A stretch of 64,000 nucleotides of DNA, taken from contig CAZSZE010000016.1 of the NCBI GenBank assembly GCA_964610645.1, positions 617-64,616 of the forward strand, written 5' to 3'. Under the pieces are notes generated by a model that saw nothing but the letters and a program-made list of their open reading frames with translations, made no database searches and had not been told where the DNA came from. The first letter of the stretch is position 1. Each line of letters opens with the position of its first letter. This document shows positions 5,915 to 38,737 of this stretch, piece by piece. The position numbers were made by a program, and so were the translations under genes. This stretch comes from an uncultured Enterobacterales bacterium. GTDB lineage: Bacteria; Myxococcota_A; UBA796; CAJQPC01.

Positions 5915-5933
5915 TGTGGGGTGCCACCTGATG
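5915..5933. promoter_or_regulatory. candidate operator, palindrome TGTGGGGTG-C-CACCTGATG
   Basis: One of six intergenic copies of the AGGTG-N-CACCT-core palindrome. It lies 59 nt upstream of the SCP2 operon start. Confidence 0.55.
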
Positions 5934-5949
5934 CTCGGCCAAGGGCCTG

Positions 5950-7557
5950 TCAATCAGCGGTGGGCGCGGCTCCGTCGGGGAGAAGAGCAGCGGGGTCGCT
6001 CGGGTTGGAGGACGGTTCTGCCACGGGGGAGAGGCGACCGAATCCGCGGCCGAACAAGAGCGACACGATGCGACGAATCACGGAGAATCCGCCGCGGGAG
6101 TAGGGGTACCACCAGATCTCGCGGGAAAGGGGGTTGGGAATGAGGGCGTGGTTCACGTGGTGGGTGCGACACATGTCCCGCATGGAGTCGTCCGAGTGGA
6201 TGCGGCCGAGCCCGCTGTTCTTGATGCCGGCCCACGGGGTCTCCGGCATGGAGTAGGTGCTCAAGACGTCATCCACCATGACCATCCCGGACTCGATGCG
6301 TTTTGCCACCTGGACCCCACCCGGGCCGAAGACATAGGCCATGAGCCCCAGGTGGGAGTCGTTGGCCAGGGCGATGGCCTCGTCCACGTCGTCAAAGGCA
6401 AGAATGGGCAGCAAGGGCGCGAACGACTCTTGCTGGACCACGTCCGCATCCTGGGGGACCTCGGTGATCACGGTGGGGGAAAAGAAGGTGCCGTCCAAGT
6501 CGGGGGAAGTACCGCCCGTGCGGATGGTGGCCCCCCGTGCCGTGGCATCCGCCACCTGCGCGTTGGCGTTGTCGATCTGCATGGGGTGGATGATCGCCCC
6601 CACGTCCACAGGGCCTTCGGCGGGGTTTCCCTGGCGCAGGCGCTCGGTCAACTCCACCACCCGGGTCACCAGGGGTTCATAGAGGGAGCGGTGGACATAG
6701 GCCCGCTCGACGGAAACGCAGACCTGGCCGGAGTTCACGAAGGCTCCCCAGACCATGGCCCGGGCAGTGCGCTCCACGTTGGCACCCGGGAGGACCACGA
6801 AGGGCGCTTTGCCCCCGAGCTCGAGGGCGCAGGGGATCAAGCGGCGGGCACAGGCCTCGCCGACTTTCCTTCCCGTGGCCACCGACCCGGTAAAGACGAT
6901 CTTGTCGACGCCGGCCTCAACCAAGGCGGCCCCGGTCTCTCCATACCCATTCACCACCTGCACCAGGTCCGCCGGCACACCGGCCTCCACCAGAAGCTCC
7001 CGCAGCTTCATGGCGATCAGCGGCGTGGTCTCAGAGGGCTTCAACACCACGCCGTTGCCGGCCAGGAGCGCCACCACGATGTCCCCCCCGGGAATGATCA
7101 ACGGGAAGTTCCAGGGGGAAATGACCCCGACAACCCCGCGGGGGGTGTAGTGCAGGAAGCTGCGGCGATGGAGCATCAGGTGCAGGCGGATTCCCCTGGG
7201 CTTCAAGATCCGGTGGGCCCGGCGGGCAAAGTAGGTGGTGAGGTCCAGCAGGGTGAAGACCTCGGCCATGTAGGCTTCCATGACCGGCTTGCCGCACTCC
7301 AGGGACAGCAGTTCGGTCAGTTCGCTCCCGCGCTCTCGCGTAAGGTCCCGAAACCGCATCAGCACCCGGGCCCGCTCCCGGACCGAAAGCGCTGCCCAGG
7401 CGGGCTGCGCTGCCCGAGCGCGATCCACAGCGGCTTGCACGCTGGCGGCGTCGTCTACGGGGACGTGGGCAAAGACTGCACCCGTGGCAGGGGCACGGCA
7501 GGGAATCGGGTCCATTGCCTTGTCTTGTAGTGCGGTGGTGAGTGGCTGGACAGTCAT
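5950..7557 (-). CDS. aldehyde dehydrogenase family protein
   Basis: About 535 aa. ALDH motifs are FTGSVATGRKV, ELGGKAPFVV and FVNSGQVCVSVER. The ATG at 7557 is preferred over the TTG at 7563. Confidence 0.85.
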   Translation of the reverse strand: MTVQPLTTALQDKAMDPIPCRAPATGAVFAHVPVDDAASVQAAVDRARAAQPAWAALSVRERARVLMRFRDLTRERGSELTELLSLECGKPVMEAYMAEVFTLLDLTTYFARRAHRILKPRGIRLHLMLHRRSFLHYTPRGVVGVISPWNFPLIIPGGDIVVALLAGNGVVLKPSETTPLIAMKLRELLVEAGVPADLVQVVNGYGETGAALVEAGVDKIVFTGSVATGRKVGEACARRLIPCALELGGKAPFVVLPGANVERTARAMVWGAFVNSGQVCVSVERAYVHRSLYEPLVTRVVELTERLRQGNPAEGPVDVGAIIHPMQIDNANAQVADATARGATIRTGGTSPDLDGTFFSPTVITEVPQDADVVQQESFAPLLPILAFDDVDEAIALANDSHLGLMAYVFGPGGVQVAKRIESGMVMVDDVLSTYSMPETPWAGIKNSGLGRIHSDDSMRDMCRTHHVNHALIPNPLSREIWWYPYSRGGFSVIRRIVSLLFGRGFGRLSPVAEPSSNPSDPAALLPDGAAPTAD

Positions 7558-7566
7558 TTCCAAAAG

Positions 7567-7592
7567 TGTAATGTGACAGGTGACACTTTACA
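7567..7592. promoter_or_regulatory. candidate operator (TGACAGGTG-A-CACTTTACA at 7574-7592 plus extra half-site TGTAATGTG at 7567)
   Basis: Lies in the divergent ALDH / extended-SDR intergenic region. Same palindrome family as the other five sites. Confidence 0.5.
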
Positions 7593-7630
7593 TACACCGG
7601 GCTACACCGATCATCCACTCTGGAGTTGTC

Positions 7631-8698
7631 GTGGCGGACGTTCTCATCACTGGCGCAGGCGGATTTCTGGGAACTGAGCTGACGCGGGTTTTCCTCGCAT
7701 CGGGCCACCGGGTGAAGGCGGGAGACCTCGAAGGGGTGCCGCTTGACTGGCACGGCAAACAAGGCGCACAGCCGGTGCGCTTGGATGTGCGGGACCTGGA
7801 CAGCCTCAAGGCAGCCTGTGCCGACACGGATGTGGTGGTCCATGCCAGCGGGATCTTTGATCTCACGGTGGACAAGGACGTGCTGTGGGCTGTGAACGCG
7901 GAGGGCGCCAAGAACATGGCCCAGGCGGCCGCCGAGTCTGGGACCAAGCGGTTTGTGATGGTGAGCTCCACGTCGGTGTATGGCCGGTGTGGCCTGGATG
8001 TGACCGAGGAGAGTCCCCGGAACCCGACCCATGCCTACGACCTGTCCAAGGATGCCGGCGAGCGTCTCGCAATTGCGGCCTGCGAGGAGAAGGGGCTTCC
8101 CTGGACAGCCTTGCGGCCGACCCTGATCTACGGACCCCGCGGTCGGTACGGGGTGGCCCAGGCAGCGGCCTTGTTTTCTATGCGGACGCAGTTGGGATTG
8201 AACACCCTGCGCGTCTCCGAGGGGGGGCCCATGGGCCACCATGTCCACGTGACCGATGTGGCCCGCGCGGCGGAGTACCTGGCGAGCCACCCGGATGCGG
8301 TGGGGACGGTATTCAACGTGGCCGACGATGCGCCCTTGAGTGCGGGGGATATGATCCGCGTGCTCTGCAAGAGCGTGGGAATGGAGGTCAAGTCACCGGC
8401 CCTGCCCTGGTGGATGGCAAAGCTCGCCCGCTTCTTCAAGCCCCTTGCCCGGACGTTCCTGGGGAGGGAGAACGCCAAGCTTGCCCATATCTGGGGAAAG
8501 ATCACCGAAAAACTCGGCCTGCAGAACGCGCTGGTCCCGCGCATGGACCTGGACTGGCTGGACTACATGTTCATCGACCACACCTACAAGAACGACCGGA
8601 TCAAGAGCCTGGGTTTTACCTTCAACTACCCGGACTCCTCCCTGGGCATCGATGAGACCCTTCAGTGGTACAAGCAGGAGAAGTGGTTGCCGGAGTAG
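7631..8698 (+). CDS. extended SDR, NAD-dependent epimerase/dehydratase or 3-beta-HSD family
   Basis: N-terminal Rossmann motif VLITGAGGFLG. The GTG at 7631 is preceded by GGAG. The ORF-track start at 7580 would overlap the operator. Confidence 0.8.
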   Translation: MADVLITGAGGFLGTELTRVFLASGHRVKAGDLEGVPLDWHGKQGAQPVRLDVRDLDSLKAACADTDVVVHASGIFDLTVDKDVLWAVNAEGAKNMAQAAAESGTKRFVMVSSTSVYGRCGLDVTEESPRNPTHAYDLSKDAGERLAIAACEEKGLPWTALRPTLIYGPRGRYGVAQAAALFSMRTQLGLNTLRVSEGGPMGHHVHVTDVARAAEYLASHPDAVGTVFNVADDAPLSAGDMIRVLCKSVGMEVKSPALPWWMAKLARFFKPLARTFLGRENAKLAHIWGKITEKLGLQNALVPRMDLDWLDYMFIDHTYKNDRIKSLGFTFNYPDSSLGIDETLQWYKQEKWLPE

Positions 8699-8766
8699 GG
8701 GACCTTATCGTCGGGAGAGTACCGCCTGGTACGTGGTAGAACGCCAGTGTCTTCCCCGAGGTTGTC

Positions 8767-10890
8767 ATGCGTCGCTTTCTCTTGCCTGTCGTCCTTCCCC
8801 TGGTTCTCTTTTCAACCGCCTGTCGTGACACCGACAAGGGGATCGTGCTTGAAACCGGTCAGGTGGAGGACACCAGCGCGGAGGACACCGGGGACACCGA
8901 GGACACCGGGGAGGCCGTGGATGCGGATGGGGACGGCGTGCCGGCCGAGCAGGACTGCGATGACACGAATGCGGAGATCTACCCAGGGGCCGATGAGTCC
9001 TGTGACGGTGCCGACAACGACTGCGACGGGGTGATTGACGAGGACGATGCTGTGGACGTGGTCACGTTCTACGCGGATGGGGACGGCGATGGGTTTGGCG
9101 ACAACGAAACCTCGGTGATGGCCTGCGAGGCGCCAGTGGGTTTCAGCGCCACCGGAGGGGACTGTGATGATGCGGATCCAGCGTTCCACCCGGGGGCGGG
9201 GGAGTCGGACTGCACGGACCCCGCCGACTACAACTGCGATGGATCCGTGGGGTGGGCCGATGCGGATGCCGACGGGTTTGCAGCCTGTGAGGACTGCGAC
9301 GATGCAGACGTGGACGTGAATGACAACGCCACCGAGATCTGCGACACCATCGACAACGACTGCGACGGGCTGGTGGACAGCTACGATCCGAGCGTGACGG
9401 ACGCCTCGACCTGGTATGGCGATGCGGACGGCGACGGCTACGGGGGAAGCCAGTTCCAGACGGCGGCCTGCGTGGCTCCGGCCGGGTATGTCGCCAGCTC
9501 GGATGACTGTGATGACCTGGATGCGACCAGCCATCCCGGAGGCACGGAGGTCTGTGACCTGGCCGACAACAACTGCGATGGTGTGGTCGACGAAGGGGTT
9601 GAGTTCACCTGGTATGCCGATGGGGACGGCGATGGATACGGCGATGCGGCGACCACCACGGACGCCTGCACCCAGCCCCCGGGGTACTCCGCCAACGGCG
9701 ATGACTGCGATGACAACAGCGCCTCCACGAGCCCGGCGGGGCTGGAGGTCTGCGATGGAGCCGACAACAACTGCGATGGGGTGGTTGACGAGGCTGGGGC
9801 ACTGGGGGGAAGCACCTGGTACGTGGATGCAGATGGGGATGGATGGGGTGTGACGACAGGCAGCGTGGTGTCGTGCAGTGCCCCGAGTGGCTACGCAGCG
9901 GTGGATGGTGACTGCAACGATGACCCGGCGGCGGGTGGGGCCGATCAGTACCCGGGCGCGACGGAGACCTGGTACGACGGCATCGACCAGGACTGCGATG
10001 GATTCGATGATGACCAGGACGAGGACGGAGCACTCCTTGCGGACGACTGCGATGACTTGGATGCAGCCTCGACGATCGTGTCCGAGGACGGCGACTGCGA
10101 CGGGATTCTGACGGCAGCCGATTGCGACGATGCAGATGCCACCTCCACCGCAATCGCGGACGACGCGGACTGCGACGGGATCCTCACGGCTGCGGATTGT
10201 GACGACGGCGATGCGGCCTCCACGGCGGTGGCCGACGATGCGGACTGCGATGGTGTGCTCACGGCAGTGGATTGCGACGACACCGACCCGGCCCAATCCT
10301 GGTGCCGCACCTGCAACGACATTCTCGCAGCGGGTCTCTCCGTTGGTGACGGGGACTACACCATCGATCCCGTCGGAGGTGATGCCTTTGTTGTGACCTG
10401 CGACATGACCACCGATGGCGGCGGCTGGACGGAGATCGCCTACACCCAGGACCTGGACTTCCTGGGACATGGCGGTCCAGGCGACAACTGGGAGTGGCTG
10501 TCGAGTGACTTCTCCCTGGAGCTTACCGATGCCCGGATCCAGGCGATCCAAGGGCTCTCCACCGAGGGCAAGCAGCGCTACGTGGGCATCTGCAACAATG
10601 TGATCCACTACTACTACAACGCCGGTTCCACCTACAGCTACGCCTTCGGATTCCGGTTCCTGGACGGGACGGAGACCCCGAATGGCACCTCGAACTACAG
10701 CCCACACGTGATCACGGTTCCCCAGGATGGCTGCGCCTCAAACGACTCGGCGGGCAACACCGCTGCGACAGGCACCTGGTTCGACATCGAGAGCGTGCTC
10801 GTGCCGGTCATAAATGTATACAGCCGCGACAACGAGCCCAGTGAGCCGTATGGATCCTCCCTCACCGCCAACCCTGCTTGGTTGCGGTAG
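8767..10890 (+). CDS. secreted lipoprotein with Cys-rich Asp-rich repeats and C-terminal fibrinogen-like (CDMxxDGGGWT) domain
   Basis: Lipobox LVLFSTAC. It carries about 8 modules of D.DGDG...CDD.....PGA.E.CDG.DNDCDG..DE. The C-terminal part reads CNDILAAGLSVGDGDYTIDPVGGDAFVVTCDMTTDGGGWTEI. Confidence 0.75.
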   Translation: MRRFLLPVVLPLVLFSTACRDTDKGIVLETGQVEDTSAEDTGDTEDTGEAVDADGDGVPAEQDCDDTNAEIYPGADESCDGADNDCDGVIDEDDAVDVVTFYADGDGDGFGDNETSVMACEAPVGFSATGGDCDDADPAFHPGAGESDCTDPADYNCDGSVGWADADADGFAACEDCDDADVDVNDNATEICDTIDNDCDGLVDSYDPSVTDASTWYGDADGDGYGGSQFQTAACVAPAGYVASSDDCDDLDATSHPGGTEVCDLADNNCDGVVDEGVEFTWYADGDGDGYGDAATTTDACTQPPGYSANGDDCDDNSASTSPAGLEVCDGADNNCDGVVDEAGALGGSTWYVDADGDGWGVTTGSVVSCSAPSGYAAVDGDCNDDPAAGGADQYPGATETWYDGIDQDCDGFDDDQDEDGALLADDCDDLDAASTIVSEDGDCDGILTAADCDDADATSTAIADDADCDGILTAADCDDGDAASTAVADDADCDGVLTAVDCDDTDPAQSWCRTCNDILAAGLSVGDGDYTIDPVGGDAFVVTCDMTTDGGGWTEIAYTQDLDFLGHGGPGDNWEWLSSDFSLELTDARIQAIQGLSTEGKQRYVGICNNVIHYYYNAGSTYSYAFGFRFLDGTETPNGTSNYSPHVITVPQDGCASNDSAGNTAATGTWFDIESVLVPVINVYSRDNEPSEPYGSSLTANPAWLR
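10084..10295 (+). repeat. 75-nt (25-aa) tandem repeat x ~2.8 inside the lipoprotein gene
   Basis: The peptide reads EDGDCDGILTAADCDDADATSTAIA / DDADCDGILTAADCDDGDAASTAVA / DDADCDGVLTAVDCDDTDP. Confidence 0.8.
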
Positions 10891-10925: not shown

Positions 10926-12149
10926 TCAGTACCCCCGCGGAAGCCCCAGTTCGTGCTCGCTGACGAAGTTCAGGATCATCTCGGCTGTGATCGGCGCGGT
11001 CCGCAGCAGGCGGGCGGACTCGTAGTAATGGATGATTCCGTACTCCTCTGAGAAGCCGTAGCCGCCGAGGGTCTGGATCGCCCGGTCCACGGCTTCAATC
11101 GCCATCTCCCCGGCCTTGTATTTCGCCATGTTGGCGTAGGTTCCGACCTTGCCGGGATGCTCCCCCTGGTCAAAGGCCCAGGCGGCCCGGTAGGTGAGCA
11201 GGCGCACGGCGTCTAGCTCAATGCGGACCTTCGCCAACGGATGCGAGATCGCCTGGTAGGCGCCGATGGGGCGGTCCTTGAAGACGGTGCGCTCCTTGGC
11301 ATAGCTCACGGCCTTGTCCAGGCAGTTCTGGGTCATGCCGCAGGCGGTGGCGGCCGCCAGGATCCGCTCCGGGTTCAGGGAGTTGAACAGCGCCATGCCC
11401 CCCATGTCGGCCTCGCCCACCAGCTCGGTGGCCGGCACCCGGACATCGTCCATGTAGACCGTGTACTGGGTCATGCCCTCGATGCCCCGGGTCGGGATGG
11501 GCTTGAGATCAATGCCGGGCAGCTTGGGATCGAGAATGAACAGCGCCAGGCCAAAGGCCTTGGGCAGGCCCTGTTCCTCGCATTGCTCCCGGGAGGTGGT
11601 GCGGCACACGAGCAGCAGGCGATCCGCCACATCGGCTCCGGTGATGAACACCTTCTGGCCGCTGATCAGGTAGTCATCGCCATCTTTCTTGGCGAGGGTC
11701 TGGATGCGGAAGGCGTTCGAGCCGGCGTTGGGCTCGGTGAGCGCAAAACCAAACTTCATCTCCCCGCTGGCCATCTTGGGCAGGTAGCGGCGCTTCATCT
11801 CCTCGGAGCCGTTGCGCAGGATGCACGACGCATCCATGGTGGTCAGCACGAAAAGGGCGTTTCCGAACCCCATAGTGGCCAGGGTCTCCAGGCCGATGGT
11901 GGTGGCCAGCAGTCCCATGTCGTTGCCGCCATATTCCTCGGGAATCACGCAGCCCATCAGCCCGGTGGAGCAGATGGCATCCCAGACCTCCTGGGGGAAG
12001 ATCTTGTCCTTCAACACCATCTTCACCAGCTCTTCCCGGCGGCCCTTGAACGGCTCCAGGCACTTCTTCATGGAGTCCTGGATCATGAGATGTTCTTCGG
12101 AGAATTCGAAATCGAGGGCCATGGGGCGCTCCGGTGGCAGAGGTGTCAT
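10926..12149 (-). CDS. acyl-CoA dehydrogenase
   Basis: 407 aa with typical ACAD architecture: FALTEPNAGSNAF, the middle domain ISGQKVFITGA, and C-terminal QTLGGYGFSEEYGIIHYY. Confidence 0.9.
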   Translation of the reverse strand: MTPLPPERPMALDFEFSEEHLMIQDSMKKCLEPFKGRREELVKMVLKDKIFPQEVWDAICSTGLMGCVIPEEYGGNDMGLLATTIGLETLATMGFGNALFVLTTMDASCILRNGSEEMKRRYLPKMASGEMKFGFALTEPNAGSNAFRIQTLAKKDGDDYLISGQKVFITGADVADRLLLVCRTTSREQCEEQGLPKAFGLALFILDPKLPGIDLKPIPTRGIEGMTQYTVYMDDVRVPATELVGEADMGGMALFNSLNPERILAAATACGMTQNCLDKAVSYAKERTVFKDRPIGAYQAISHPLAKVRIELDAVRLLTYRAAWAFDQGEHPGKVGTYANMAKYKAGEMAIEAVDRAIQTLGGYGFSEEYGIIHYYESARLLRTAPITAEMILNFVSEHELGLPRGY

Positions 12150-12166: not shown

Positions 12167-12185
12167 TGTAAGGTGACACCTCATG
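12167..12185. promoter_or_regulatory. candidate operator TGTAAGGTG-A-CACCTCATG within promoter TTGCCG-17-TACACT
   Basis: Lies 18 nt upstream of the ACAD start. On the gene strand the palindrome sits in the spacer between -35-like and -10-like hexamers. Confidence 0.6.
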
Positions 12186-12250: not shown

Positions 12251-13855
12251 TCAGGGTCCGCCGTAGAAGAGAAAGGCCGCCCCTGGGTGCCCCAATTCGC
12301 TGCCATGGTAGGAGACGCCAATCACGAAGTCGTCGTAGGAATCGTTGTTGATGTCTCCGAGTCCCGCCAAATCAACGTTGGCGTACATTCCTGTCTCCCC
12401 CACGAACTTTGCATCCGCGTCAGACAGGTCAACGACGCCCGCCAACGGTCCATAGAGGAGATGTGCTGCTCCTGCGTCGTGTCCATCGGTTTGATTGACC
12501 CGGCCACCTACCAAGACATCGCCGAGACCATCCCCGTCAACATCGCCCGCATCCGAAACGACTCCACCCGCGTAATCTCCAGCATTCTCGCCCACCAATT
12601 TTGCAGTGGCGAGAGACAGGCTGAATTCCCCTTCAACTCTGTCTGTTACTAAGTAGGCCGCGCCGGCGTTGATTCCACCAGTCCATTCCCGTGGTGCCCC
12701 TACCAGCAGGTCCGGAGTTCCGTCTCCGTTCACGTCTCCGGTGCCTGACACGTCGTAGCCGGCATAGTCGCCGGTTTCTTCACCTGTCAGGGTGGCGTCT
12801 GCTCGTTCACTGACCGCATGGGTTCCGACGACTGGCCCCCAAAGGACAAAGGTCCTGCCCGGTCACCCGGGGGCACTCACGATGATGTCGGCAAGGCCAT
12901 CGCCGTTCAGGTCGCCGGCGGCAGAGACTGAGGTCCCCAACCGGCCGCCATACAGGTAGCCAAGGAGATGGGCGGTGGGTTTGTAGACATTTTCTGGCTC
13001 GGTCGGCGGCTCTGTATACAGGTAGACTGAGCCTCCATCAAGGGAGTCATTAACGTCGCCGTGACGATCGCTTGACCGGCCGATCAAGATGTCGGCCAGG
13101 CCATCGCCGTCCACATCTCCGGCTCCAGCTATCCCGGTACCTCCAATAATATTACCATGCTGGTTTTCAAAAAGAGCGCCTGCGTCCGAGAGGCTGCTGC
13201 TACCGCGCTTGGGACTCTTGAGGAGAACCACCCCCTGGTTGCTTCCAATCAATAAATCGTCGAAACCGTCGGCGTCGACATCCCCGACTCCAGCGACCTG
13301 GTGGCCAGTAAAACTCCTCTCTTCTGAGCCAAGGATTGTTGCGACGGCCGCCTCAGAAAGTTCGGCGATTCCTCGAACTGCGCCTGTCACTAAATAGGCT
13401 GCACCTGCATTCTCCCATGGGAGATCTTCGTAAGGAGCAACAACGATCAAATCGGGTCGACCGTCTGCATCGACGTCGCCGACCGCCGCGACTGCATCTC
13501 CAGCGCCACCGAGTGGTTGTTTTCCAATCAGGGCTGCGTCGGCGGTTTCTGGGCTGAGGAACCCTTTTGGCCTCGTGTAACAACCCTCGTCGATTCGTCC
13601 GTCGCAGTTCGTGTCGTGGCCGTCACAGACCTCCGCAGCACTGGGGTTCACTGCTGCATCCGAATCGTCACAGTCAGATTCGTTTGGGTACCCGTCGCCG
13701 TCGCCGTCGTGGTCGGGATCCCAGTTCGTGTTGGCTGCTGTGTCTACGGGCTCTTCCTGCCTTTGTACGGACCGCTTTGTCTCAGCGTCTCTCAAGTCCT
13801 CACAGGCCGCCACCAGGAGAATCGTGATCGCCAGGGAGTGGGAGTTGCGTTCCAT
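12251..13855 (-). pseudogene. FG-GAP repeat lipoprotein interrupted by a single in-frame TGA (12863-12865)
   Basis: ORFs 12863-13855 and 12251-12751 are in the same frame. The translation reads ...GDGLADIIVSAPG*PGRTFVLWGPVVGTHAV...GDVNGDGTPDLLVGAP. Lipobox LLVAAC, and GD(V/L)(D/N)GDG FG-GAP repeats occur on both sides of the stop. Confidence 0.7.
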
Positions 13856-15541: not shown

Positions 15542-15560
15542 TAATAGGTAACACCTTACA
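15542..15560. promoter_or_regulatory. candidate operator TAATAGGTA-A-CACCTTACA
   Basis: Lies 17 nt upstream of the ligase ATG. The half-site runs into the -10-like TACACT and is followed by GAGGGG. Confidence 0.55.
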
Positions 15561-15576: not shown

Positions 15577-17067
15577 ATGCTGGTTCCGGACCTCCTTCGA
15601 GAGGCTGCTGCCAAACAGCCGGAACGGGTGGCTGTCCACGTGGATGGTTGCGGGGAAATGACGTACGGGCAGTGGGAATCCCGCTCGAATCGCTTGGCCC
15701 GGGCCCTGGTGGCACTGGGGGTGTGCCCGGGGGACCGGGTGGCCCTGTCCTTCACCAACTTCGATGGACTGGCGTTTCTGGTCAGCTGGTTTGCGATTCA
15801 CAAGGCCGGCGGTGTGGGGGTGCCCACCAATCCGGCGGCCCCGCCCCGGGAGTTGGCGCACATTCTGGCGCACGCCCAGGTGAAGTTGGTGCTGGGTGCC
15901 GAGGGAACGCCCGCCCGCATGGCGGAGGTTCTTCCGGAAGACGCCAGCATTCTCTCGGGGACGCAGTTGGAGGGCTGTTGGACCGACGGGGACGGGGCCT
16001 CCTTCCAGGTCCCCACGGACCCCGATGCCCTCGCGGACATTCTGTACACCTCGGGCACCACGGGGCTGCCGAAGGGCGTGGCCTGCACCCACCGGAACGT
16101 GACCTTTCAGGGCGAGTCCAAGCTGCACAAGTTCTTCAAGGGCCTGCGCTACCTCCATGCGGTTCCGCTGTTCACCTTTGCTGGCTCCCATGCCATGACG
16201 CTGCTGTGCCTGCGCGGCACCATGACCCACGTGATCCAGCCCAGGTTTGAGCCCGGGCGCTTCCTGGATCTGCTGGCCGAGAAGAAGGTCGCCATCGCCT
16301 ATGCAGTCCCAGCCATGTTGCTGCGCTGCCTGGACCACCCGCGAATCAAGGAGGGGGGGTTCGACTTCCTGCGCCTGCTCATGTACGGCACGGCCCCCAT
16401 GCCGCCCCAGGCGATTGTGGGCCTGGCCGAGCACTTCAGCGGCACCTTCCTGGTCAACCTGTATGGGCTGACGGAGGGGGGCGCGGCTGTCTGCTCCCTG
16501 CCGCCCCAGGAGGCCCTGGCCCGCCCGGACTCCATTGGAAAGCCTCTGCCTCCGACCGAGGTGAAGATCGTGGATGAATCGGGTGCGGAGCTTGGACCGG
16601 GGGAACCCGGGGAGATCTGCATCAAGGCGGTTGTCGCGGGCCGCAGCTATTTCCGGGATGAAGGCGCGACCGACAGCACCTGGCAGGACGGCTGGCTGTT
16701 GACCGGGGACATCGGAATCCTGGATGCCGACGGGTACCTGTACCTGGTGGACCGCAAGAAGGACCTGATCATCGTGGGGGGGCACAACGTCTCGGCCCCG
16801 GAGGTGGAGGCGGCCTTGCTGGAACACCCGCAAGTGCGAGAGGCAGCTGTTGTCGGCTTGCACCACCCGGTCATGGGGGAGGTTCCCCAGGCCTTTGTGG
16901 TGGGGCGGGAGGAGACTCCGGCCCCGGATGCGCTTCAGAGTTGGCTCGAGGAGCGCCTCGTGTCCTACAAGGTCCCCCGCACCTACACCTTCCTGGACGA
17001 GCTGCCTCGAAACGCCCTGGGCAAGGTGCTCAAGCGCAAGCTTCGCGCCGAGCGAGCCCCCGCATGA
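15577..17067 (+). CDS. AMP-dependent acyl-CoA synthetase/ligase
   Basis: 496 aa with the AMP-binding motif YTSGTTGLPKGV, then LTGDIG...GYLYLVDRKKDLI and the C-terminal PRNALGKVLKRKL. Confidence 0.9.
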   Translation: MLVPDLLREAAAKQPERVAVHVDGCGEMTYGQWESRSNRLARALVALGVCPGDRVALSFTNFDGLAFLVSWFAIHKAGGVGVPTNPAAPPRELAHILAHAQVKLVLGAEGTPARMAEVLPEDASILSGTQLEGCWTDGDGASFQVPTDPDALADILYTSGTTGLPKGVACTHRNVTFQGESKLHKFFKGLRYLHAVPLFTFAGSHAMTLLCLRGTMTHVIQPRFEPGRFLDLLAEKKVAIAYAVPAMLLRCLDHPRIKEGGFDFLRLLMYGTAPMPPQAIVGLAEHFSGTFLVNLYGLTEGGAAVCSLPPQEALARPDSIGKPLPPTEVKIVDESGAELGPGEPGEICIKAVVAGRSYFRDEGATDSTWQDGWLLTGDIGILDADGYLYLVDRKKDLIIVGGHNVSAPEVEAALLEHPQVREAAVVGLHHPVMGEVPQAFVVGREETPAPDALQSWLEERLVSYKVPRTYTFLDELPRNALGKVLKRKLRAERAPA

Positions 17068-17879
17068 AGACCCACCACGTAGATCTTGGCGAGTACGCCC
17101 TGGCCATACACGAAACCGGGGCAGGACCCACCCTTGTGTTCGGCCACTCCCTGACCTTTGACCACCGCATGTTCCTGGCCCAGGTGGAGGAGCTGTCCAA
17201 GACCTACCGCGTGCTGCTGGTGGACCTCCATGGACAGGGGGAGAGCAGCGCCCCGAACGACTACTTCACCCTCGATGACATGGCGGACGACGTGGAACGG
17301 GCGCTCGCCTCCCTGGACGCCGGCCGGGTCTGCTACCTGGGCCACTCCATGGGGGGCATGGTGGGCATGCGGCTGGCCATTCGACACCCGGAGCGCGTGG
17401 GGGCGCTGGTGCTGATGAACACCAGCGCGGAGGCCGAGCCGCCGCCGGTGCAGGAGCTGTACCACAGCGTCAACGAGGGCTCTCGGGGCAAGCCGTCCAA
17501 CGAGGCGACCGTGGGTTTTCTGATGAATCTCATGTTCTCCCCCGAGTTTCGAGAAGCCTGCCCGGAGCGGGTAGCCTCCTATGAGCACCAGCTGTTCAAC
17601 CCCCCTGACCCCGAGGGGGTCTACTTTGCTGCCCACGCGGTCATCTGGCGGGAGGAAATCCTGCAGGCCTTGTCGAACCTGGAGGTGCCAGCCCTGGTGG
17701 TGGGTGCACAGGAGGACAGCAGCGTGCCACTGAAGCACCAGGAGCAGATCGCTGCCCACCTGCCCGGCGCACACCTCGCCGTCATTGATGCCTGCGGCCA
17801 CATGGCCCCGGTAGAGCAGCCGGACTTGCTGATCGGCCACATGCGGGAGTTCCTCGACACCCATTGGAGTGCGGTATGA
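17064..17879 (+). CDS. alpha/beta hydrolase
   Basis: 271 aa with an ATGA start/stop overlap. HG box VFGHSL and nucleophile elbow GHSMGG. Confidence 0.85.
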   Translation: MKTHHVDLGEYALAIHETGAGPTLVFGHSLTFDHRMFLAQVEELSKTYRVLLVDLHGQGESSAPNDYFTLDDMADDVERALASLDAGRVCYLGHSMGGMVGMRLAIRHPERVGALVLMNTSAEAEPPPVQELYHSVNEGSRGKPSNEATVGFLMNLMFSPEFREACPERVASYEHQLFNPPDPEGVYFAAHAVIWREEILQALSNLEVPALVVGAQEDSSVPLKHQEQIAAHLPGAHLAVIDACGHMAPVEQPDLLIGHMREFLDTHWSAV

Positions 17880-26496: not shown

Positions 26497-26507
26497 GATT
26501 TCTTGTG

Positions 26508-27413: not shown

Positions 27414-27432
27414 TGTAAGGTGTCACCTTGCA
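27414..27432. promoter_or_regulatory. candidate operator TGTAAGGTG-T-CACCTTGCA (best palindrome of the six)
   Basis: Lies in the divergent region between the hydrolase-ACAD operon and the MerR-crotonase operon. On the minus strand it is followed by TATACT. Confidence 0.6.
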
Positions 27433-27574
27433 CTTTCTAAGAATGGCGATCTCATGAAGTCTGGCCCTTTCTACCTGTTTGAGACCCTGGCGGACGCGTC
27501 TACAGCGGCAGGTGCCACCCCATAGTTTGCTTGACCTGGCCGCCGGGTCGTTCTACTTGAGTCGAGGATTGTCC

Positions 27575-28327
27575 ATGCGCAAGGAAACGGCGGACCCGAT
27601 GGCAGAGGGGATCAAGATCGGCGAGTTGGTGAAGCGCACCGGGGTGACCCGGGCGACGGTGCACCATTACGTGCGGGAGGGCCTCCTTCCGGAGCCGAAG
27701 AAGACCTCGCGCAACATGGCGTTGTACGACCCGAGCTGCGTGGACCGCGTGCTGCTCATCAAGGGGCTTCAGGCCCAGACGCGGCGCTCCCTGGCCGAGG
27801 TCAAGGGCCTGCTGGAAGATGCCACCGGCAACGAGGGCATTGGCCGGCTCCAGGACCTGCTGGAGAACGAGGCCATGCGGGCCCAGGTCTCCCCGTTGAA
27901 CCCGGAAAAGAGCCGCTCCCCCCTGACGTTGAAGCAGCTGTGCGATCGCAGTGGGTTTGGCCGGACGGACATCGAGGAGTTCTGTGAGCACGACCTGATC
28001 GTGCCGACCGGCACCGGTCGGAATCGCAGGTTTGGTCCCCTGGACGTGGCGGTGGTCGATGCCCTGGCGGGACTTCGGGAAGCGGGCTTTGACGAGACCC
28101 ATGGTTTCAGGCCGGCCCATGCCGCCATCTACCTGCATGCCATGCGGGACCTTCTGCACACGGAGATCTCCAGCTTTCTGGCAACCGCGTCGAGCTACGA
28201 CGATCCCGATGAGCTTCTGCGCCTCGCGGAGATGGGCATCGAGCGGGTCACGCCGCTGATGCTGGCCTTGCGCCGGCGGGTCATGCACGAGCTGATTGCT
28301 GCAACGCCCCTTGCCAACGGCAACTGA
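27575..28327 (+). CDS. MerR-family transcriptional regulator (LiuR-like context)
   Basis: 250 aa from the ATG at 27575, with GAGG 8-9 nt upstream. MerR HTH: IKIGELVKRTGVTRATVHHYVREGLL. Confidence 0.85.
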   Translation: MRKETADPMAEGIKIGELVKRTGVTRATVHHYVREGLLPEPKKTSRNMALYDPSCVDRVLLIKGLQAQTRRSLAEVKGLLEDATGNEGIGRLQDLLENEAMRAQVSPLNPEKSRSPLTLKQLCDRSGFGRTDIEEFCEHDLIVPTGTGRNRRFGPLDVAVVDALAGLREAGFDETHGFRPAHAAIYLHAMRDLLHTEISSFLATASSYDDPDELLRLAEMGIERVTPLMLALRRRVMHELIAATPLANGN

Positions 28328-29124
28328 TGGCACAGGAGATCCCTCCGTTTGAGAGCTTGATCTACGAGCTGGAGGGGCATGTCTGCACCCTGACCCTGAA
28401 CCGGCCGGAGAAGCGAAACGCCCTGTCGGGACAGCTTGTGAATGAGTTGATCGTGGCCCTGGAAACCGCCGGGGAAGACCCGGATGTCCGGGTGGTGGTG
28501 CTGACCGGTGCTGGCAGTGCCTTTTGCGCCGGGGCGGATCTCTCCCAGATGAGCGGAGCTGCTGCCAGTGGGGACTCCCCCATCGCGTGGCGGGGTGGCT
28601 TTCAGGAGTTGAATCTCGCGTTCACCGAAATCGGCAAGCCGGTCCTCTGCAAGGTCCGTCGCTACGCCCTGGCGGGTGCCCTGGCCCTGGTGTGCAACAG
28701 CACCTTTGTGCTGGCCGAGGACAACGCCACCTTCGGTGCCCCGGAGATCGACCGGGGCATCTTTCCCATGATGGTGATGGCCAGCCTGTTCCGCACGGTG
28801 CCCAAGCGAAAGGGCCTGGAGCTGGTGCTGTCCGGCGAGCGCATCTCCGCTGCCGAGGCCGCCCAGATGGGCCTGATCACCCGGGCGGTTCCCTCCGAAG
28901 ACCTGGACGACGCTGTGGCGACCCTGGCCGCCACCCTCGCTGCCAAGCCGCCGGCCGCCGTGCGCCTGGGCCTGGAGGCCTACCACGCCCAATCCGAAAA
29001 AGACTTTGCCGAAGCCCTGCCCTACCTCCAGGAAATGCTGATGAAGTGCCTCAGCACCGAGGACGCCCAGGAAGGCGTGATGGCCTTCCTGCAAAAGCGC
29101 GAGCCGGTCTGGAAGGGGCGCTGA
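28327..29124 (+). CDS. enoyl-CoA hydratase/isomerase (crotonase)
   Basis: 265 aa with a TGATG overlap onto the MerR stop. Motifs LNRPEKRNAL and LTGAGSAFCAGADL. Confidence 0.9.
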   Translation: MAQEIPPFESLIYELEGHVCTLTLNRPEKRNALSGQLVNELIVALETAGEDPDVRVVVLTGAGSAFCAGADLSQMSGAAASGDSPIAWRGGFQELNLAFTEIGKPVLCKVRRYALAGALALVCNSTFVLAEDNATFGAPEIDRGIFPMMVMASLFRTVPKRKGLELVLSGERISAAEAAQMGLITRAVPSEDLDDAVATLAATLAAKPPAAVRLGLEAYHAQSEKDFAEALPYLQEMLMKCLSTEDAQEGVMAFLQKREPVWKGR

Positions 29125-29389: not shown

Positions 29390-29522
29390 TTTGGGTGGTC
29401 TGGGTCGCCAGATCAAGGGGGGTATAAAGTGACACACCGTGAATTTGGCTGACGTACCCTTGTTTCGGGGGACAATTCTGGTGTGACATGGTCGTCATCT
29501 TGGACCTGAGGCAGAGCGGATC

Positions 29523-31949: not shown

Positions 31950-31952
31950 GGA

Positions 31953-33884: not shown

Positions 33885-33925
33885 GGGGACTTTAACCCGA
33901 TGCTGGGCAGTGGTAGCCTCGGTTC

Positions 33926-34429
33926 ATGGTTCTCTTCGATGTTGGTTTCAGCTTCGTGGCGGCAGGCGCAATGGCCTGGCGTGCCCAGGGCACCCGCCCA
34001 GACCTGCCGCTGGTCTTCACAGGCTGTGGTCTCGCTCCAATCGGATTGATCTTCCTGGAGCGCTATCCGGCCTGGGATTGGCAGTACCTCGTGGATCCAG
34101 CCACGACGCCGGACATCACGCCGACGCTGTTTGTCGGGGCCATCGGGGTCGCAGCGGTGGCGGGCCACAAGGTGGGGAGTCGCTCGGTGAAACCCATCGC
34201 CGTGGCGGCGGGTCTGCTGGGCTTGTTCTGCCTGGTGCTGATCAAACAGATGCTCTTTGTGGGTACCTATGCCCAGTACCAGGCGGGAGAGGCGGCCCTG
34301 CTGCCCATGGAGTTCCTTGTCTTTGCTGTGCCCTGGTTGTCGCTGGGCGGCGGCATGCTGGGGGCATGCTTCTGGTGGTCTGAGAAGGCGGGTCGTGCAG
34401 CCCGTGGTTCCTCGCCGGGTGGAGGCTGA
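33926..34429 (+). CDS. hypothetical polytopic membrane protein
   Basis: 167 aa with about 4 hydrophobic segments. No family recognised. Confidence 0.5.
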   Translation: MVLFDVGFSFVAAGAMAWRAQGTRPDLPLVFTGCGLAPIGLIFLERYPAWDWQYLVDPATTPDITPTLFVGAIGVAAVAGHKVGSRSVKPIAVAAGLLGLFCLVLIKQMLFVGTYAQYQAGEAALLPMEFLVFAVPWLSLGGGMLGACFWWSEKAGRAARGSSPGGG

Positions 34430-34435
34430 CCGATC

Positions 34436-35269: not shown

Positions 35270-35273
35270 AGGA

Positions 35274-37088
35274 CTATGCCCGGGGCGTCGCGTAGAGCGC
35301 CTCGATCTGGTCCGCGTAGAGACTCGCGATCTCCTTGCGCCGAAGCTTCATGGTGGGGGTGAGGGTGGCCTCTTCGATGGAGAAGTCCCGGGGCAGAATC
35401 GCGTGGCGCTTGATCTGCTCGAACCGTGCCAGCCGGGCGTTGGTCTTCTCGATGGCGGTCTCCATGCGGGCCAGCACGTTCGGGTGGGAGGGGAGGTCGT
35501 CCTCGGTACAACCCAGCTCCTCGGCCACCCGGGGCGCTTCCCGCTCATCCAGGGTCAAGAGCGCCACCACATAGGGTTTCCGGTCTCCATGCACGTACAC
35601 CTGGCTCACCAGGGGCTCCTCTTTCACCAGGGCCTCCAGGCGGGCCGGCACCACATACTTGCCGCCAGCGCTCTTGATCAGGCTCTTCTTGCGATCCGTG
35701 ATGCGCAGGAATCCGTCCGCATCGATCTCCCCGATGTCCCCGGTGCGGAGGTAGCCGTCCTCATCGAACAAGGCAGCATTCTCGTCAGGCAGGTTGTGGT
35801 AGCCCGCAAAGACCGTCGGCCCCTTGAGCAGAATCTCCCCGTCCTCGGCCACCTTGACGTCGACCCCCGGAATGGCCTGTCCCACGGTGCCCAGCCGGGT
35901 GTTGTCCAGTCGGTTCGCAAAGGAAATGGCGGTGGCTTCAGACAGTCCGTAGACCTCGATGATCTGCAGCCCCATGCCGTAGAAGAACTCCAGGATCTCC
36001 AGTTGGATCGGTGCGGATCCCGTGACGAAGACCTTCACCCTCCCGCCAAAGACCGCGCGAATCCGAGTGTAGACGAGCTTGTCGGCGAGGTTCCACTGCA
36101 GGCGCCGACCCAGGGGCATGGGTGCGCCGCCCATTGCGCTGTGGGTCTTCTCGAGGGACAGGCTCTTGGCCCAGTTGAAAATCGCCTGGCGTCGGGGGTT
36201 GGCCTTGGCCACCTCCTCGTGGATTCGGCCGTACATCTTTTCAAAGATGCGGGGAACTGCACCAAAATAGGTGGGGCGAATCTCCCCCATTTCCTCCAGG
36301 AGCGTGTCGTAGCTGGTGGCGTAGGCGGTCGCGAGACCGATGTTGATGCGTCCGAAGAACCCGGGCACGTGCTCCGCCACGTGGGCCATGGGCAGAAAGG
36401 AGATCGTGATGTCGTCGGCGGTAATGTCCTCCACCATTCCCTCGCCGGCGCGAAGGCTGGAGAGGATGTTCTGGTGGGTCAGGGGCACGCCCTTCGGTCG
36501 GCCGGTGGTTCCCGAGGTGTAGACGGTCAGGGCGGGACTTGTGGGGTCCACGTGCTCGCTGGCCCGGCGGATTCGGTCCCCATCTTCCTCGAGGGCGCTG
36601 GTGCCGCGGGCCACCAGGTCCTCCATCTGCACGACGCCGGGCTGCGCATCGGGCGCGTGGTCCCAGACGACGATGTGCTCCAGGCAGCCGACTTCCGCAA
36701 GGAGCGGTGCAACGCGCTCGAAATACTCCTGTCCCTGGACAAAGAGCACCCGGGTGCCGGAGTCCGCAAGGATGAACGAGACCTGGTCTGGCAAGAGGGT
36801 CTGATAGATGCCCAGATTCATGGCCCCCAGCATCATGGTGGCCAGGTCAATGCAGCACCACGCGGGCACCGTGTCCGCCAGGATCGCCACCGTGTCCCCG
36901 TTGCCGACGCCCAGCTCCTGCAGCCCTGCGGCCAGGGTCTGTACCTCGTCCGAGAACTCTCCCCACGTGGTGGAGGTCCATTCTCCGCGCTCGTTTCGCA
37001 CCCGGTAGGTTTCCACGTCCCGGGAGACATCCACCCGGCGCCAGAAGAGATCGCAGAGGGTGGTGGATTCGGGGGCGAGCATCTTCAT
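35274..37088 (-). CDS. long-chain-fatty-acid--CoA ligase (AMP-forming)
   Basis: 604 aa from MKMLAPE, with an ATGA overlap onto the DUF35 stop. Motifs YTSGTTGRPKGV, TGDIGEIDADGFLRITDRKKSLIK and PTMKLRRK. Confidence 0.9.
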   Translation of the reverse strand: MKMLAPESTTLCDLFWRRVDVSRDVETYRVRNERGEWTSTTWGEFSDEVQTLAAGLQELGVGNGDTVAILADTVPAWCCIDLATMMLGAMNLGIYQTLLPDQVSFILADSGTRVLFVQGQEYFERVAPLLAEVGCLEHIVVWDHAPDAQPGVVQMEDLVARGTSALEEDGDRIRRASEHVDPTSPALTVYTSGTTGRPKGVPLTHQNILSSLRAGEGMVEDITADDITISFLPMAHVAEHVPGFFGRINIGLATAYATSYDTLLEEMGEIRPTYFGAVPRIFEKMYGRIHEEVAKANPRRQAIFNWAKSLSLEKTHSAMGGAPMPLGRRLQWNLADKLVYTRIRAVFGGRVKVFVTGSAPIQLEILEFFYGMGLQIIEVYGLSEATAISFANRLDNTRLGTVGQAIPGVDVKVAEDGEILLKGPTVFAGYHNLPDENAALFDEDGYLRTGDIGEIDADGFLRITDRKKSLIKSAGGKYVVPARLEALVKEEPLVSQVYVHGDRKPYVVALLTLDEREAPRVAEELGCTEDDLPSHPNVLARMETAIEKTNARLARFEQIKRHAILPRDFSIEEATLTPTMKLRRKEIASLYADQIEALYATPRA

Positions 37089-37513
37089 GTTGCAGCTCCT
37101 GCCGGGCGAAACCGCCAGGCGCACAGGCCTTCGTGGATGTCGAGGACTTCCGGCTCCAGGGCATCCCCGATGGAGAGGGACTCCTGGGTGCCAGCAATCG
37201 GACTCATGACCAGGCCCACGCCGGGAATCTCGACCACGCCGATCACGTCCGGGTAGGTAAAGCGCAGGCCGCGGTTCTGGGTGGTGAAGGCGTACAGGGT
37301 GGCGCCGGACCCGATCTCCCGCCAGCTGACCGTGTCGGAAAAGCAGGTGGGGCAGAACTCCCGGGGGGGGAAGGTGGTCAAATCGCAGGCGTCGCAGTGG
37401 GTGGCGCACAGGGTGCGGTCCGTTGCGAGGCGTCGTTGCAGCTCCTTGGAGGCCCGGGTTCCATACTGGTCCAGGGCCTGGAGGGCGAATTCCTGGAGGG
37501 GATTGCCGCCCAT
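37085..37513 (-). CDS. DUF35 Zn-ribbon/OB-fold protein (thiolase-like partner)
   Basis: 142 aa. Cys4 ribbon C.THC..C....FPPREFCPTC followed by an OB-fold region. Confidence 0.85.
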   Translation of the reverse strand: MGGNPLQEFALQALDQYGTRASKELQRRLATDRTLCATHCDACDLTTFPPREFCPTCFSDTVSWREIGSGATLYAFTTQNRGLRFTYPDVIGVVEIPGVGLVMSPIAGTQESLSIGDALEPEVLDIHEGLCAWRFRPAGAAT

Positions 37514-37514
37514 G

Positions 37515-38702
37515 TCAGCTCCTGTTCTCGAAGGCCATGACCACCGAGCCGTTCATCATGCCGTGTTCCGCGTGGACCAGTCCTACCCGGGCGTTCTCCA
37601 CCTGGCGGCCCGGGGCCTGGCCCCAGAGCTGTCGGACCACCTCGGCCACCTCGTAGAGGGGAGTTGCGCCCGCTGGATGCCCAAAGCTCATGCGGCCGCC
37701 GGTGGGGTTGATCACCACGTCGCCCCCCCAGGTACTCCCGCCATCCGCCAGGAAGTGGGCGGCTTCGCCTTTCGGACAGAACCCCAGGTCCTCGTAGAGG
37801 ATCAGCTCCGTGGCGCCGAAGACCCCGTAGACCTCGGCGACATCGACGTCGTCGGGGGTGATGCCAGCCTCCTCGCAGGCCTGTTTTCCGGCCTCCACCA
37901 CGGACTCGAAGCGGGTGATGCTGCCCTTTCGGGGAATGAAGTGGCTGGGGTGGTGGTGCTCGCCGTAGCCGGTGATTCGGACCACATCTCGCCCGTTGTC
38001 GCACCGATCCGCAGAGGTCACCACGACGGCCACAGCCCCGGAGGAAATGCTGGCAGCTTGCAGCAGGTGAATCGGCGGGGAGAGCCACTTGGAGGACAGG
38101 ACGTCGTCGACGGTGATCGGGTCTCGGAACTGCGCCAGGGGGTGGTTCGCCGCGTGTTCCCGCAGGCGGACGCTGGAGAGTGCGACCTGGGCCTCGTCGA
38201 CCCCGAACTCGTGCATGTAGCGCTGGTGGGACAGGGCGTAGAGCGGAATGGGCGGGCCGTGGCCCAAGATGGAGTTTACGCCGCCGTAGAGGGCAGCCGT
38301 GGTGAAGGCCACGTGGCGCACAAAGGACTCGAAGTGGTTGGTGTCGAGCGTGGGCCGCGTGTCGGAGGCCACCACCAGGGCGGCTTTGCAGCGGCCCAGC
38401 GCGACGGCATCCATGGCGGACCGGAGGGCCAACAGCGCTGAGGCTCCGCCGTTCTCCACCAGCACGAGTCCCTTGGTTGTCAGGCCCAGGTGCTCTGCAA
38501 AATTGGCAGCGAACATGAGCCAGGGTTCACCGGACAACGCGGCTGGGGTCAGAAAGAGGCCGTCGATGTCAGCGGGCTTCAGTCCAGCATCCAGCACGGC
38601 CTCGCGGGCGACGGTGGAGCAGGTGTCCAGCACCGTTTCGTCCAGATCCCTTTGCACGGGGGTGGTGGAAAGACCTGCGATGGCAAGGGGGGAGCCGGTC
38701 AC
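37515..38702 (-). CDS. thiolase-like protein (SCP-x/lipid-transfer-protein Ltp type)
   Basis: About 396 aa from the GTG at 38702, with GAGG upstream. The longer ORF-track start would swallow the operator. Thiolase-fold C-terminus NPTGGRMSFGHPAGATP. It ends 1 nt before the DUF35 gene. Confidence 0.85.
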   Translation of the reverse strand: MTGSPLAIAGLSTTPVQRDLDETVLDTCSTVAREAVLDAGLKPADIDGLFLTPAALSGEPWLMFAANFAEHLGLTTKGLVLVENGGASALLALRSAMDAVALGRCKAALVVASDTRPTLDTNHFESFVRHVAFTTAALYGGVNSILGHGPPIPLYALSHQRYMHEFGVDEAQVALSSVRLREHAANHPLAQFRDPITVDDVLSSKWLSPPIHLLQAASISSGAVAVVVTSADRCDNGRDVVRITGYGEHHHPSHFIPRKGSITRFESVVEAGKQACEEAGITPDDVDVAEVYGVFGATELILYEDLGFCPKGEAAHFLADGGSTWGGDVVINPTGGRMSFGHPAGATPLYEVAEVVRQLWGQAPGRQVENARVGLVHAEHGMMNGSVVMAFENRS

Positions 38703-38718
38703 GGGCGCCTCACAAAAG

Positions 38719-38737
38719 TATAAGGTGGCACCTGATA
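38719..38737. promoter_or_regulatory. candidate operator TATAAGGTG-G-CACCTGATA
   Basis: Lies 17 nt upstream of the thiolase-like GTG. On the gene strand the half-site merges with TATACT. Confidence 0.55.

Follow-up and report, generated by a model that had tools for sequence, protein, structure and literature searches.

A stretch of 64,000 nucleotides from an uncultured Myxococcota genome (contig CAZSZE010000016.1, positions 617 to 64,616; hereafter the window) carries six intergenic copies of a palindromic element in front of genes for lipid and acyl-CoA catabolism, together with a gene for a MerR-family regulator (27575-28327, + strand). The six copies, and with them a weak seventh at 27506, are near-certainly operators of a single transcription-factor regulon. 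Co-occurrence and co-variation of element and protein across genomes indicate that the MerR protein is very probably the cognate factor. Both proposals had been made from the letters of the window without database searches (the sequence-only reading), and computational comparison with other genomes favors both. The explanation that is preferred as a whole, in which the MerR protein would occupy these operators, govern a lipid-catabolic regulon and occlude its promoters until a ligand relieves repression, is judged probable from the same comparisons. What they describe would be a real, conserved, previously undescribed but fairly ordinary gene-control circuit in uncultured Myxococcota; it changes no concept, and regulons predicted by comparative genomics are common.

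The six 19-bp elements have exactly the letters and coordinates first given for them, all six are intergenic, and each shows 0 or 1 mismatch to the core AGGTGNCACCT. When one mismatch is allowed, this core occurs 9 times in the window, compared with 2.67 +/- 1.79 times in dinucleotide-preserving shuffles of the window (n = 100), none of which reaches 9 (0/100). The three further matches are found at 10134, 15281 and 27510, the first two inside genes, with poor flanks and at chance level. A position weight matrix (PWM) built from the six window sites scores them at 19-29 bits and sets them apart from all else in the window. Because this test is circular, a second PWM was built solely from sites located 5' of MerR orthologues in other genomes. 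This foreign-genome PWM gives 28.2 bits at 27414, 26.3 at 38719, 25.2/22.7 at 7567/7574, 20.9 at 15542, 19.3 at 12167 and 12.0 at 5915, and its top 11 positions in the window are the six sites and their own overlaps shifted by 7 bp. Seven positions, at five of the six sites, reach at least 13 bits where 0.11 are expected; random sequence of the same composition yields 0.11 such matches per 64 kb, with a maximum score of 16.4. Nothing scores above about 6 bits between 39 and 64 kb, a region of peptidase, FG-GAP, TPR, tRNA-synthetase and other genes, or 5' of the MopE/FG-GAP, peptidase and tRNA-synthetase genes. The earlier remark that the motif is not seen in front of non-lipid genes thus holds, the scan having found none in coding or unrelated regions.

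The 19-bp palindrome forms the core of a 27-bp site, AAAG-TGTAAGGTG-N-CACCTTACA-CTTT. Over 32 non-redundant sites the motif is AAAGTGTAAGGTG-N-CACCTTACACTTT, and the AAAG/CTTT flanks hold 0.7-1.1 bits per position, so that the element is 27 bp long; similarity from site to site ends at about this length. Four GTG/CAC triplets can be made out in the site, GTG-N4-GTG-N-CAC-N4-CAC, and its consensus is self-similar at a shift of 7 bp. About one third of the sites consist of two overlapping PWM matches exactly 7 bp apart, as at 7567/7574 in the window and at 9934-9959 of locus L085 from a relative (TGTCATC TGTCACG TGACACC TGACACT). Arrays of TGWMASS-like 7-mers are visible at window 7567-7592, L085 9934-9959, L088 4763-4788 and L087 1867-1892. 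In these arrays the inversion point (GTG-N-CAC) is out of step with the AAAGTG/CACTTT ends by one heptad.

Other origins of such a repeated palindrome, namely a hairpin in the 5' untranslated region that acts on translation or stability, a dispersed repeat, or chance, are taken together extremely improbable. Short hairpins are possible at the sites, which are 16-60 nt away from start codons, but their folding energies are no better than those of shuffles (z from -1.0 to +0.5) and there is no Rfam match. Moreover, each arm keeps its sequence and often mismatches the other (e.g. TGTGGGGTG/CACCTGATG), with no co-variation, and both strands of divergent gene pairs are served by the sites. The likeness stops at the site edges, with no similarity past about 27 bp, which excludes a mobile repeat, and chance is excluded by the core count against shuffles and by the foreign-genome PWM scan.

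The genes behind the sites were mapped from Pfam scans and from the public gene calls of L081, a contig 99.98% identical to the window; gene calling based on G+C at third codon positions was set aside, as it gave the wrong strand for several genes. The first site (5915-5933) is located between the stop of an aldehyde dehydrogenase (ALDH) gene (5950) and the start of an SCP2 gene (5856), and heads a unit of SCP2, thiolase, SDR-SCP2-MaoC (MFE-2 type; SDR, short-chain dehydrogenase/reductase) and carboxyltransferase genes (365-5856, -, Pfam). It is the weakest copy of the six, at 12-19 bits depending on the PWM, and gains support because the orthologous position in the relative L002 (3683) holds a perfect palindrome, TGTAAGGTGACACCTTACA. 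In L086 and L088 the SCP2/MFE-2/carboxyltransferase genes belong to a site-headed operon that also contains the MerR gene. The second site (7567-7592) occupies the divergent region between the ALDH gene (5950-7557, -, Pfam) and a gene for an SDR of the 3beta-hydroxysteroid dehydrogenase (3β-HSD)/epimerase type (7631-8698, +, Pfam). It is a 26-bp composite with two registers 7 bp apart, TGTAATG TGACAGG TGACACT TTACA, and the extra half-site noticed earlier at 7567 is real. Orthologous ALDH/SDR divergent regions with sites occur in L002 (5209) and L088 (4763-4788). The third site (12167-12185) lies 5' of an acyl-CoA dehydrogenase (ACAD) gene (10926-12149, -, Pfam; alternative conserved start 12122). 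In L002 the orthologous ACAD promoter keeps the site, at 7524, with diverged flanks; sites 5' of ACAD genes in L087 (2421) and L088 (1754) are candidate orthologues only. The first and third sites do share the flank ATGCTCGGC(C)AAGGG, as had been pointed out, but the idea that they are duplicated promoters, resting on about 16 shared nucleotides, is not supported.

The fourth site (15542-15560) ends 16 nt before the ATG (15577) of a seven-gene unit for an acyl-CoA ligase, an alpha/beta hydrolase, an enoyl-CoA hydratase, an ACAD β/α pair, a zinc-dependent alcohol dehydrogenase (Zn-ADH) and an ALDH (15577-23441, +, Pfam and L081 calls). The fifth (27414-27432), the strongest copy of the six, is located 5' of an alpha/beta hydrolase and ACAD-pair unit (24323-27365, -, Pfam), with its center 152 nt from the MerR ATG. 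The sixth (38719-38737) ends 16 nt before the GTG start (38702) of a unit that encodes an SCPx-type thiolase-like protein, a zf-ChsH2/OB (DUF35) protein and an AMP-ligase (35274-38702, -, Pfam). With the thiolase-like start placed at this GTG, the site falls in the divergent region shared with a sigma-70-family gene (38825-39865, +). These are the two points on which the gene contexts first proposed needed revision; otherwise Pfam returns them as described. An alternative sigma promoter served by the sigma-70-family protein was rejected, as that gene is beside a site only in the window and in L001 and the palindrome does not have promoter-like architecture.

On the other side of the fifth site, the MerR gene (ATG 27575) is co-transcribed with a crotonase gene (28327-29124), the unit covering 27575-29124 (+, Pfam). 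Just 5' of it lies the weak seventh site (27506-27524, CGGCAGGTGCCACCCCATA; core match at 27510), which abuts the putative -35 of the MerR gene, a TTGACC hexamer, and has its center 60 nt from the MerR ATG. L001 keeps this site, which is probably the candidate autoregulatory site of the MerR gene in this genome, an assignment kept tentative because its score is only 5-14 bits. The strong site 27414 has the same letters in L001; there, a gene for a luciferase-like monooxygenase stands between it and the MerR gene (L001 8850-9928, corresponding to 27494-27504 of the window, between the site and the MerR promoter). This arrangement matches the hydrolase/luciferase divergent layout of L085, and the window genome appears to have lost the monooxygenase gene. 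In L081 (8413-8431) and L082, contigs from other samples that are 99.97-99.98% identical to the window, the equivalent of site 27414 carries an internal A>G single-nucleotide polymorphism (GTGTCACC > GTGTCGCC). The same change deletes an in-frame stop, and gene callers consequently run the hydrolase open reading frame (ORF) across the site. A half-site-like sequence, TATAAAGTGACACACCGTG, is present at 29423-29441 (5.5-12 bits, varying with the PWM used), in a 530-bp gap after the crotonase gene and 5' of a 76-aa ORF.

ACAD genes are paired side by side at two places, 18511-20843 and 24323-26496, and one partner of each pair has no match to the middle (catalytic) domain. Steroid side-chain degradation is known to involve heteromeric alpha2beta2 ACADs with this layout. 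In combination with the SCPx-thiolase/DUF35, MFE-2 and SCP2 genes, the pairs hint at a bulky or methyl-branched lipid substrate.

Conservation was followed in relatives of the regulator. Scanning of species-representative genomes with conserved helix-turn-helix (HTH) peptides returned at least 578 relatives; L001-L009 are metagenome-assembled genomes (MAGs) with MerR proteins 52-92% identical to that of the window, and four more contigs, with public gene calls and Pfam tags, came from exact-protein look-ups. L001 is 85-92% identical to the window in nucleotide sequence and 92-95% in intergenic regions. Because it is too close, L002 was used for footprinting (66% identity for the MerR protein, 76% for the ACAD). 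At four window promoters (SCP2/MFE2, ALDH/SDR, ACAD and MerR-enoyl-CoA hydratase) the L002 orthologues keep the site within intergenic surroundings that have diverged to the point of being unalignable, so that the conservation in orthologous promoters that had been anticipated is found. In 11 of 11 distinct relatives (MerR proteins 49-66% identical), a high-scoring site heads the transcription unit that holds the MerR gene, and in L002-L009 and L084-L088 it either lies within about 30-110 nt on the 5' side of this gene or heads the operon that includes it. Sites in these relatives also precede ACAD genes, ALDH/3β-HSD-SDR genes (divergent, as in the window), SCP2-SDR-MaoC-carboxyltransferase units and MerR-thiolase-ChsH2-ligase (SCPx-thiolase-DUF35-ligase) units; the thiolase-like/ChsH2/ligase trio follows the MerR gene directly on its 3' side in most of them. 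Further sites precede GMC oxidoreductase-BKACE-SRPBCC, hydrolase/luciferase-like monooxygenase, methylmalonyl-CoA mutase-LCM and ABHD18-PGAP1-acyltransferase units.

The link between protein and site extends to another phylum. Homologues of about 33% identity from Solirubrobacterales/Thermoleophilia (L010-L080) are encoded at the end of their operon, and among the 56 loci with enough upstream sequence a variant of the site, AAAGTGGACAGTAGCACTTCCYACTTT, heads that operon in 52, once per locus, with 3 other matches in 1.24 Mb. It is located 3.8-5.9 kb 5' of the MerR gene (median 4.9 kb). In L024, the one locus annotated, an ACAD gene (-) is separated by the site (5008-5026) from an operon for a carboxyltransferase with an N-terminal extension, BKACE, an OsmC-like protein, a CoA-transferase III and the MerR protein (9971-10678). 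The full element is aAAGTGGACAGTAGCACTTCCyACTTTca (variants TGTAGAGTAaTACTTTCTAC). A strict 9-1-9 palindrome search in Solirubrobacterales returned none, the motif having surfaced after GTA-N-TAC seeding, and the Myxococcota PWM gives 0 matches of at least 17 bits in the 1.24 Mb of Solirubrobacterales DNA. The architecture AAAGTG-N4-GTR-N-YAC-N4-CACTTT is nevertheless common to both phyla, and the recognition-helix region reads TRATIHHY in the Myxococcota type versus PAPTIKHY in Solirubrobacterales. This cross-phylum co-variation of motif and regulator families is the strongest available computational evidence that the MerR protein would bind the site.

Co-localization is nonetheless indirect evidence for the MerR protein, and other regulators are encoded near some of the relatives' loci, e.g. 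a TetR-family gene in L084. A genuine operator might thus be bound by a different, unlinked transcription factor, with the MerR gene merely a member of the regulon. This is very unlikely, since the MerR gene is the sole regulator gene consistently present and is site-headed in all 11 relatives. It would also conflict with the variant of the same 27-bp architecture that accompanies 33%-identical homologues at 52 of 56 loci in the other phylum. Furthermore, the TGTNA...TNACA ends of the site are a known pattern of the MerR-family winged helix-turn-helix (wHTH) proteins GlnR and TnrA (PMC6191146).

The regulator is a protein of 250 aa with a MerR wHTH at residues 13-80 (Pfam PF13411, E = 1.3e-20; PF00376, E = 2.8e-10). 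Profile searches of the PDB place it broadly in the MerR family, with matches to MerR, CadR and PbrR, and fold searches agree. Most homologues show a match to PF28507 (Rv1828_C), at a faint or weak level. The AlphaFold model (pLDDT 84) consists of the wHTH, a helical linker, a second β-helix-helix-wing-helix unit (117-169) and two long helices. In Foldseek, the N-terminal part resembles CadR, PbrR and GlnR and the C-terminal part the Rv1828 C-terminal domain (5ydc_A, E = 1.1e-2, TM 0.58 over 128 columns). The C-terminal half alone gives a weak MerR_1 match (E = 0.014), and alignment of the profiles of the two halves with hhalign gives E = 6.5e-5 over 53 columns, which suggests that the regulator is probably an internal tandem of MerR-type modules, the second wHTH being degenerate. 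The NCBIfam FtsR model NF050798 matches partially, at 39 bits against a cut-off of 150. The HTH signature GVTRATIHHYVxEGLLPEP retrieves this subfamily only, and the closest taxon-named homologues of the protein are Myxococcota MAGs. A connection of the 7-bp registers with two wHTH-like modules is speculation.

A more far-reaching scenario can be built on this tandem. The regulator would represent an undescribed cross-phylum MerR subfamily whose two tandem wHTH modules read four heptad-phased GTG/CAC triplets, the 7-bp shifts in about one third of sites reflecting alternative or cooperative docking of the modules, and lipid would be sensed through the Rv1828_C-like half. In uncultured Myxococcota, one ancestral operon of the kind present in Thermoleophilia (ACAD facing carboxyltransferase-BKACE-CoA-transferase-MerR) would have grown into a regulon of several operons, whose genes would specify peroxisome-like processing (MFE-2/SCPx/SCP2) of methyl-branched lipids or sterol side chains. 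As a whole, this scenario is doubtful.

The preferred explanation is repression by a dimer at the shared operators. The regulon would comprise genes of beta-oxidation type that serve a bulky or branched lipid, i.e., those for SCP2, MFE-2, SCPx-thiolase-DUF35, heteromeric ACADs, acyl-CoA ligases, crotonases, ALDH/ADH, the 3beta-HSD-like SDR and the carboxyltransferase, as well as the regulator's own gene. The dimer is predicted to bind through its N-terminal wHTH. Site centers lie 26-70 nt from start codons, five of them at 26-27 nt, and because the operators are so near the start codons they most likely overlap the -10/transcription-start region, where the protein would repress by occlusion. 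A repressor is slightly favored as the mode of action. At 15542 and 38719 a Shine-Dalgarno-like GAGG lies between site and start. E. coli-type consensus promoter scans are nearly empty in these regions; the one match places its -35 within the proximal arm of site 7574. A repressor role has been described for LiuR, which belongs to the MerR family and regulates acyl-CoA catabolism (PMC3223726), and by analogy ligand-relieved repression would be the simplest reading. Release or switching would follow when a lipid-like ligand binds the Rv1828_C-like C-terminal half, the probable sensor. The ligand of Rv1828 is listed as fatty acids (PMC9909328), and the class proposed here, fatty acid or acyl-CoA, is a guess.

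MerR proteins are better known for a different mode of control, in which the palindrome sits in the spacer between -35 and -10, transcription is weakly repressed without ligand, and the ligand-bound protein activates by distorting the DNA. The sequence-only reading had adopted this placement on the strength of TTGCCG-17-TACACT at 12167. The protein does have a MerR wHTH, the proximal arm and its flank form a -10-like TACACT or TATACT, TTGCCG is found 17 nt 5' of the -10-like hexamer at 12167, and the fixed distance of 26-27 nt from center to start at several sites fits a -10 in the arm followed by a very short leader. However, MerR-type promoters are defined by a 19-20-bp spacer in which the dyad is centered (PMC9909328), whereas the sole pair of hexamers proposed here has a 17-bp spacer, the dyad is off-center in this sequence-level test, and the promoter falls below the threshold of the sigma-70 scan. 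Over the 32 sites, positions -19 to -14 hold at most 0.5 bit, i.e., there is no -35-like hexamer at a fixed distance. A -10 within the arm would in addition cut the GAGG off the mRNA at 15542 and 38719, and in the divergent regions a single site would have to fall within two promoter spacers at once. Spacer placement is thus not borne out, and canonical MerR control is unlikely. A sigma-54 promoter (TGGCAC-N5-TTGC) was also tried and rejected by inspection, the spacing of its elements being wrong.

Several points weigh against the preferred explanation as well. The case is wholly comparative and computational. Promoters are not placed by E. coli-type scans, and the overlap with the -10/transcription-start region rests on start-codon distances, for which some start codons are themselves uncertain (ACAD 12149 or 12122, ALDH 7557 or 7515). 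Classical MerR proteins activate as well as repress, and a dual role may apply here. Site 5915 is degenerate. The Rv1828_C likeness on which the sensor assignment draws appears weak in the profile matches and in the modeled structure alike (faint or weak Pfam matches; Foldseek E = 1e-2, TM 0.58), and the ligand class is a guess.

The nearest functional analogue of the regulator is LiuR and the nearest in architecture is FtsR/Rv1828. Like LiuR, which controls branched-chain acyl-CoA catabolism in Proteobacteria, it is a MerR-family protein with a palindromic operator 5' of ACAD, carboxyltransferase and enoyl-CoA hydratase genes. Its gene likewise lies inside the cluster that it controls and is autoregulated (predicted here). 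As in the liu cluster, the MerR gene is co-operonic with a carboxyltransferase gene, with the ACAD gene in the operon or beside it, in L086, L088 and Solirubrobacterales. Alphaproteobacterial LiuR orthologues were reportedly predicted by Kazakov et al. in 2009 to control fatty-acid degradation. A liu/ivd-type cluster encodes isovaleryl-CoA dehydrogenase, methylcrotonyl-CoA carboxylase alpha/beta, a hydratase and HMG-CoA lyase. Here, ACAD, carboxyltransferase and crotonase genes are among the targets or neighbors, and the ORFs scanned, which are part of the window's ORFs, gave no biotin-carboxylase or HMG-CoA-lyase domain. LiuR proteins are short, about 130-140 aa. In contrast, the present protein has 250 aa and an Rv1828_C-like second half, and SCP2/MFE-2/SCPx, heteromeric ACADs and oxidoreductases predominate in its regulon. 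The equivalence with LiuR that had been considered is not upheld: protein architecture, compared here without the operator boxes, argues against orthology and leaves a functional analogue at most. A plasmid search for a LiuR locus returned short MerR matches that are metal regulators and generic ACAD matches.

With the actinobacterial FtsR/Rv1828, the regulator has in common a MerR wHTH, apparently followed by an Rv1828_C-like domain (weak PF28507 and 5ydc_A matches), and an operator that is a long inverted repeat, about 25-27 bp in length. Nevertheless, its 39 bits are far below the equivalog cut-off of 150, so that it is not an FtsR equivalog. The 25-bp FtsR motif in the ftsZ promoter, AACCCTAAAGTAAAGGTTGAGGGTA (PMC6683498), is unrelated to the site described here. 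FtsR targets ftsZ and cell division, activating ftsZ from -73 in C. glutamicum, whereas the present targets are lipid-catabolic and none is ftsZ. A third comparison is offered by GlnR/TnrA, short MerR-family regulators of nitrogen metabolism in Firmicutes, which act by simple promoter occupancy rather than spacer distortion. Their 17-bp operator, TGTNAN7TNACA (PMC6191146), has the same TGTNA...TNACA ends, and the modeled wHTH superposes on GlnR-DNA structures with TM 0.76-0.81 (normalized to target). Unlike in GlnR/TnrA, the spacing is N9 instead of N7 in all 32 sites and there are extra inner GGTG/CACC and outer AAAG/CTTT determinants. Furthermore, the protein is much larger, with another C-terminal part and an unrelated regulon. 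A literature search found no description of this MerR subfamily, motif or regulon, and half-site strings matched primers only.

The operator provides a testable regulatory handle on a conserved, uncharacterized lipid-catabolic gene set in uncultured Myxococcota (SCP2/MFE-2/SCPx-DUF35, heteromeric ACADs, 3β-HSD-like SDR, GMC oxidoreductase and BKACE). In complete MAGs it could delimit the full regulon and so help to infer the substrate. The comparison also defines a MerR subfamily, with its 578 or more relatives in species-representative genomes, whose members are encoded alongside acyl-CoA genes in two phyla. Its pairing of an Rv1828_C-like domain with lipid metabolism fits the fatty-acid ligand of Rv1828, an essential mycobacterial regulator, and may aid understanding of that protein. 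The pair of regulator and operator could become a lipid-responsive switch.

Full-length homologues of 25-30% identity are also encoded on sphingomonad megaplasmids (L089 9001-9705, L090 7001-7744), beside cytochrome P450 genes; at the Sphingobium locus the P450 gene is accompanied by a ferredoxin gene. No related palindrome was evident in the one intergenic region inspected, and these homologues were set aside as a comparison set because they are too distant. Within the window, G+C falls to 0.59 between 12200 and 14300, compared with a mean of about 0.65. The roughly 650 bp to the right of site 12167 hold no ORF with a Pfam match and are followed by a MopE/FG-GAP repeat gene (12863-13855, -). 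Secreted-type repeat proteins are encoded at 8767-10890, 12863-13855 and 43393-46740, and include six Cu-binding MopE repeats, FG-GAP repeats and a 1115-aa subtilase-FG-GAP fusion.

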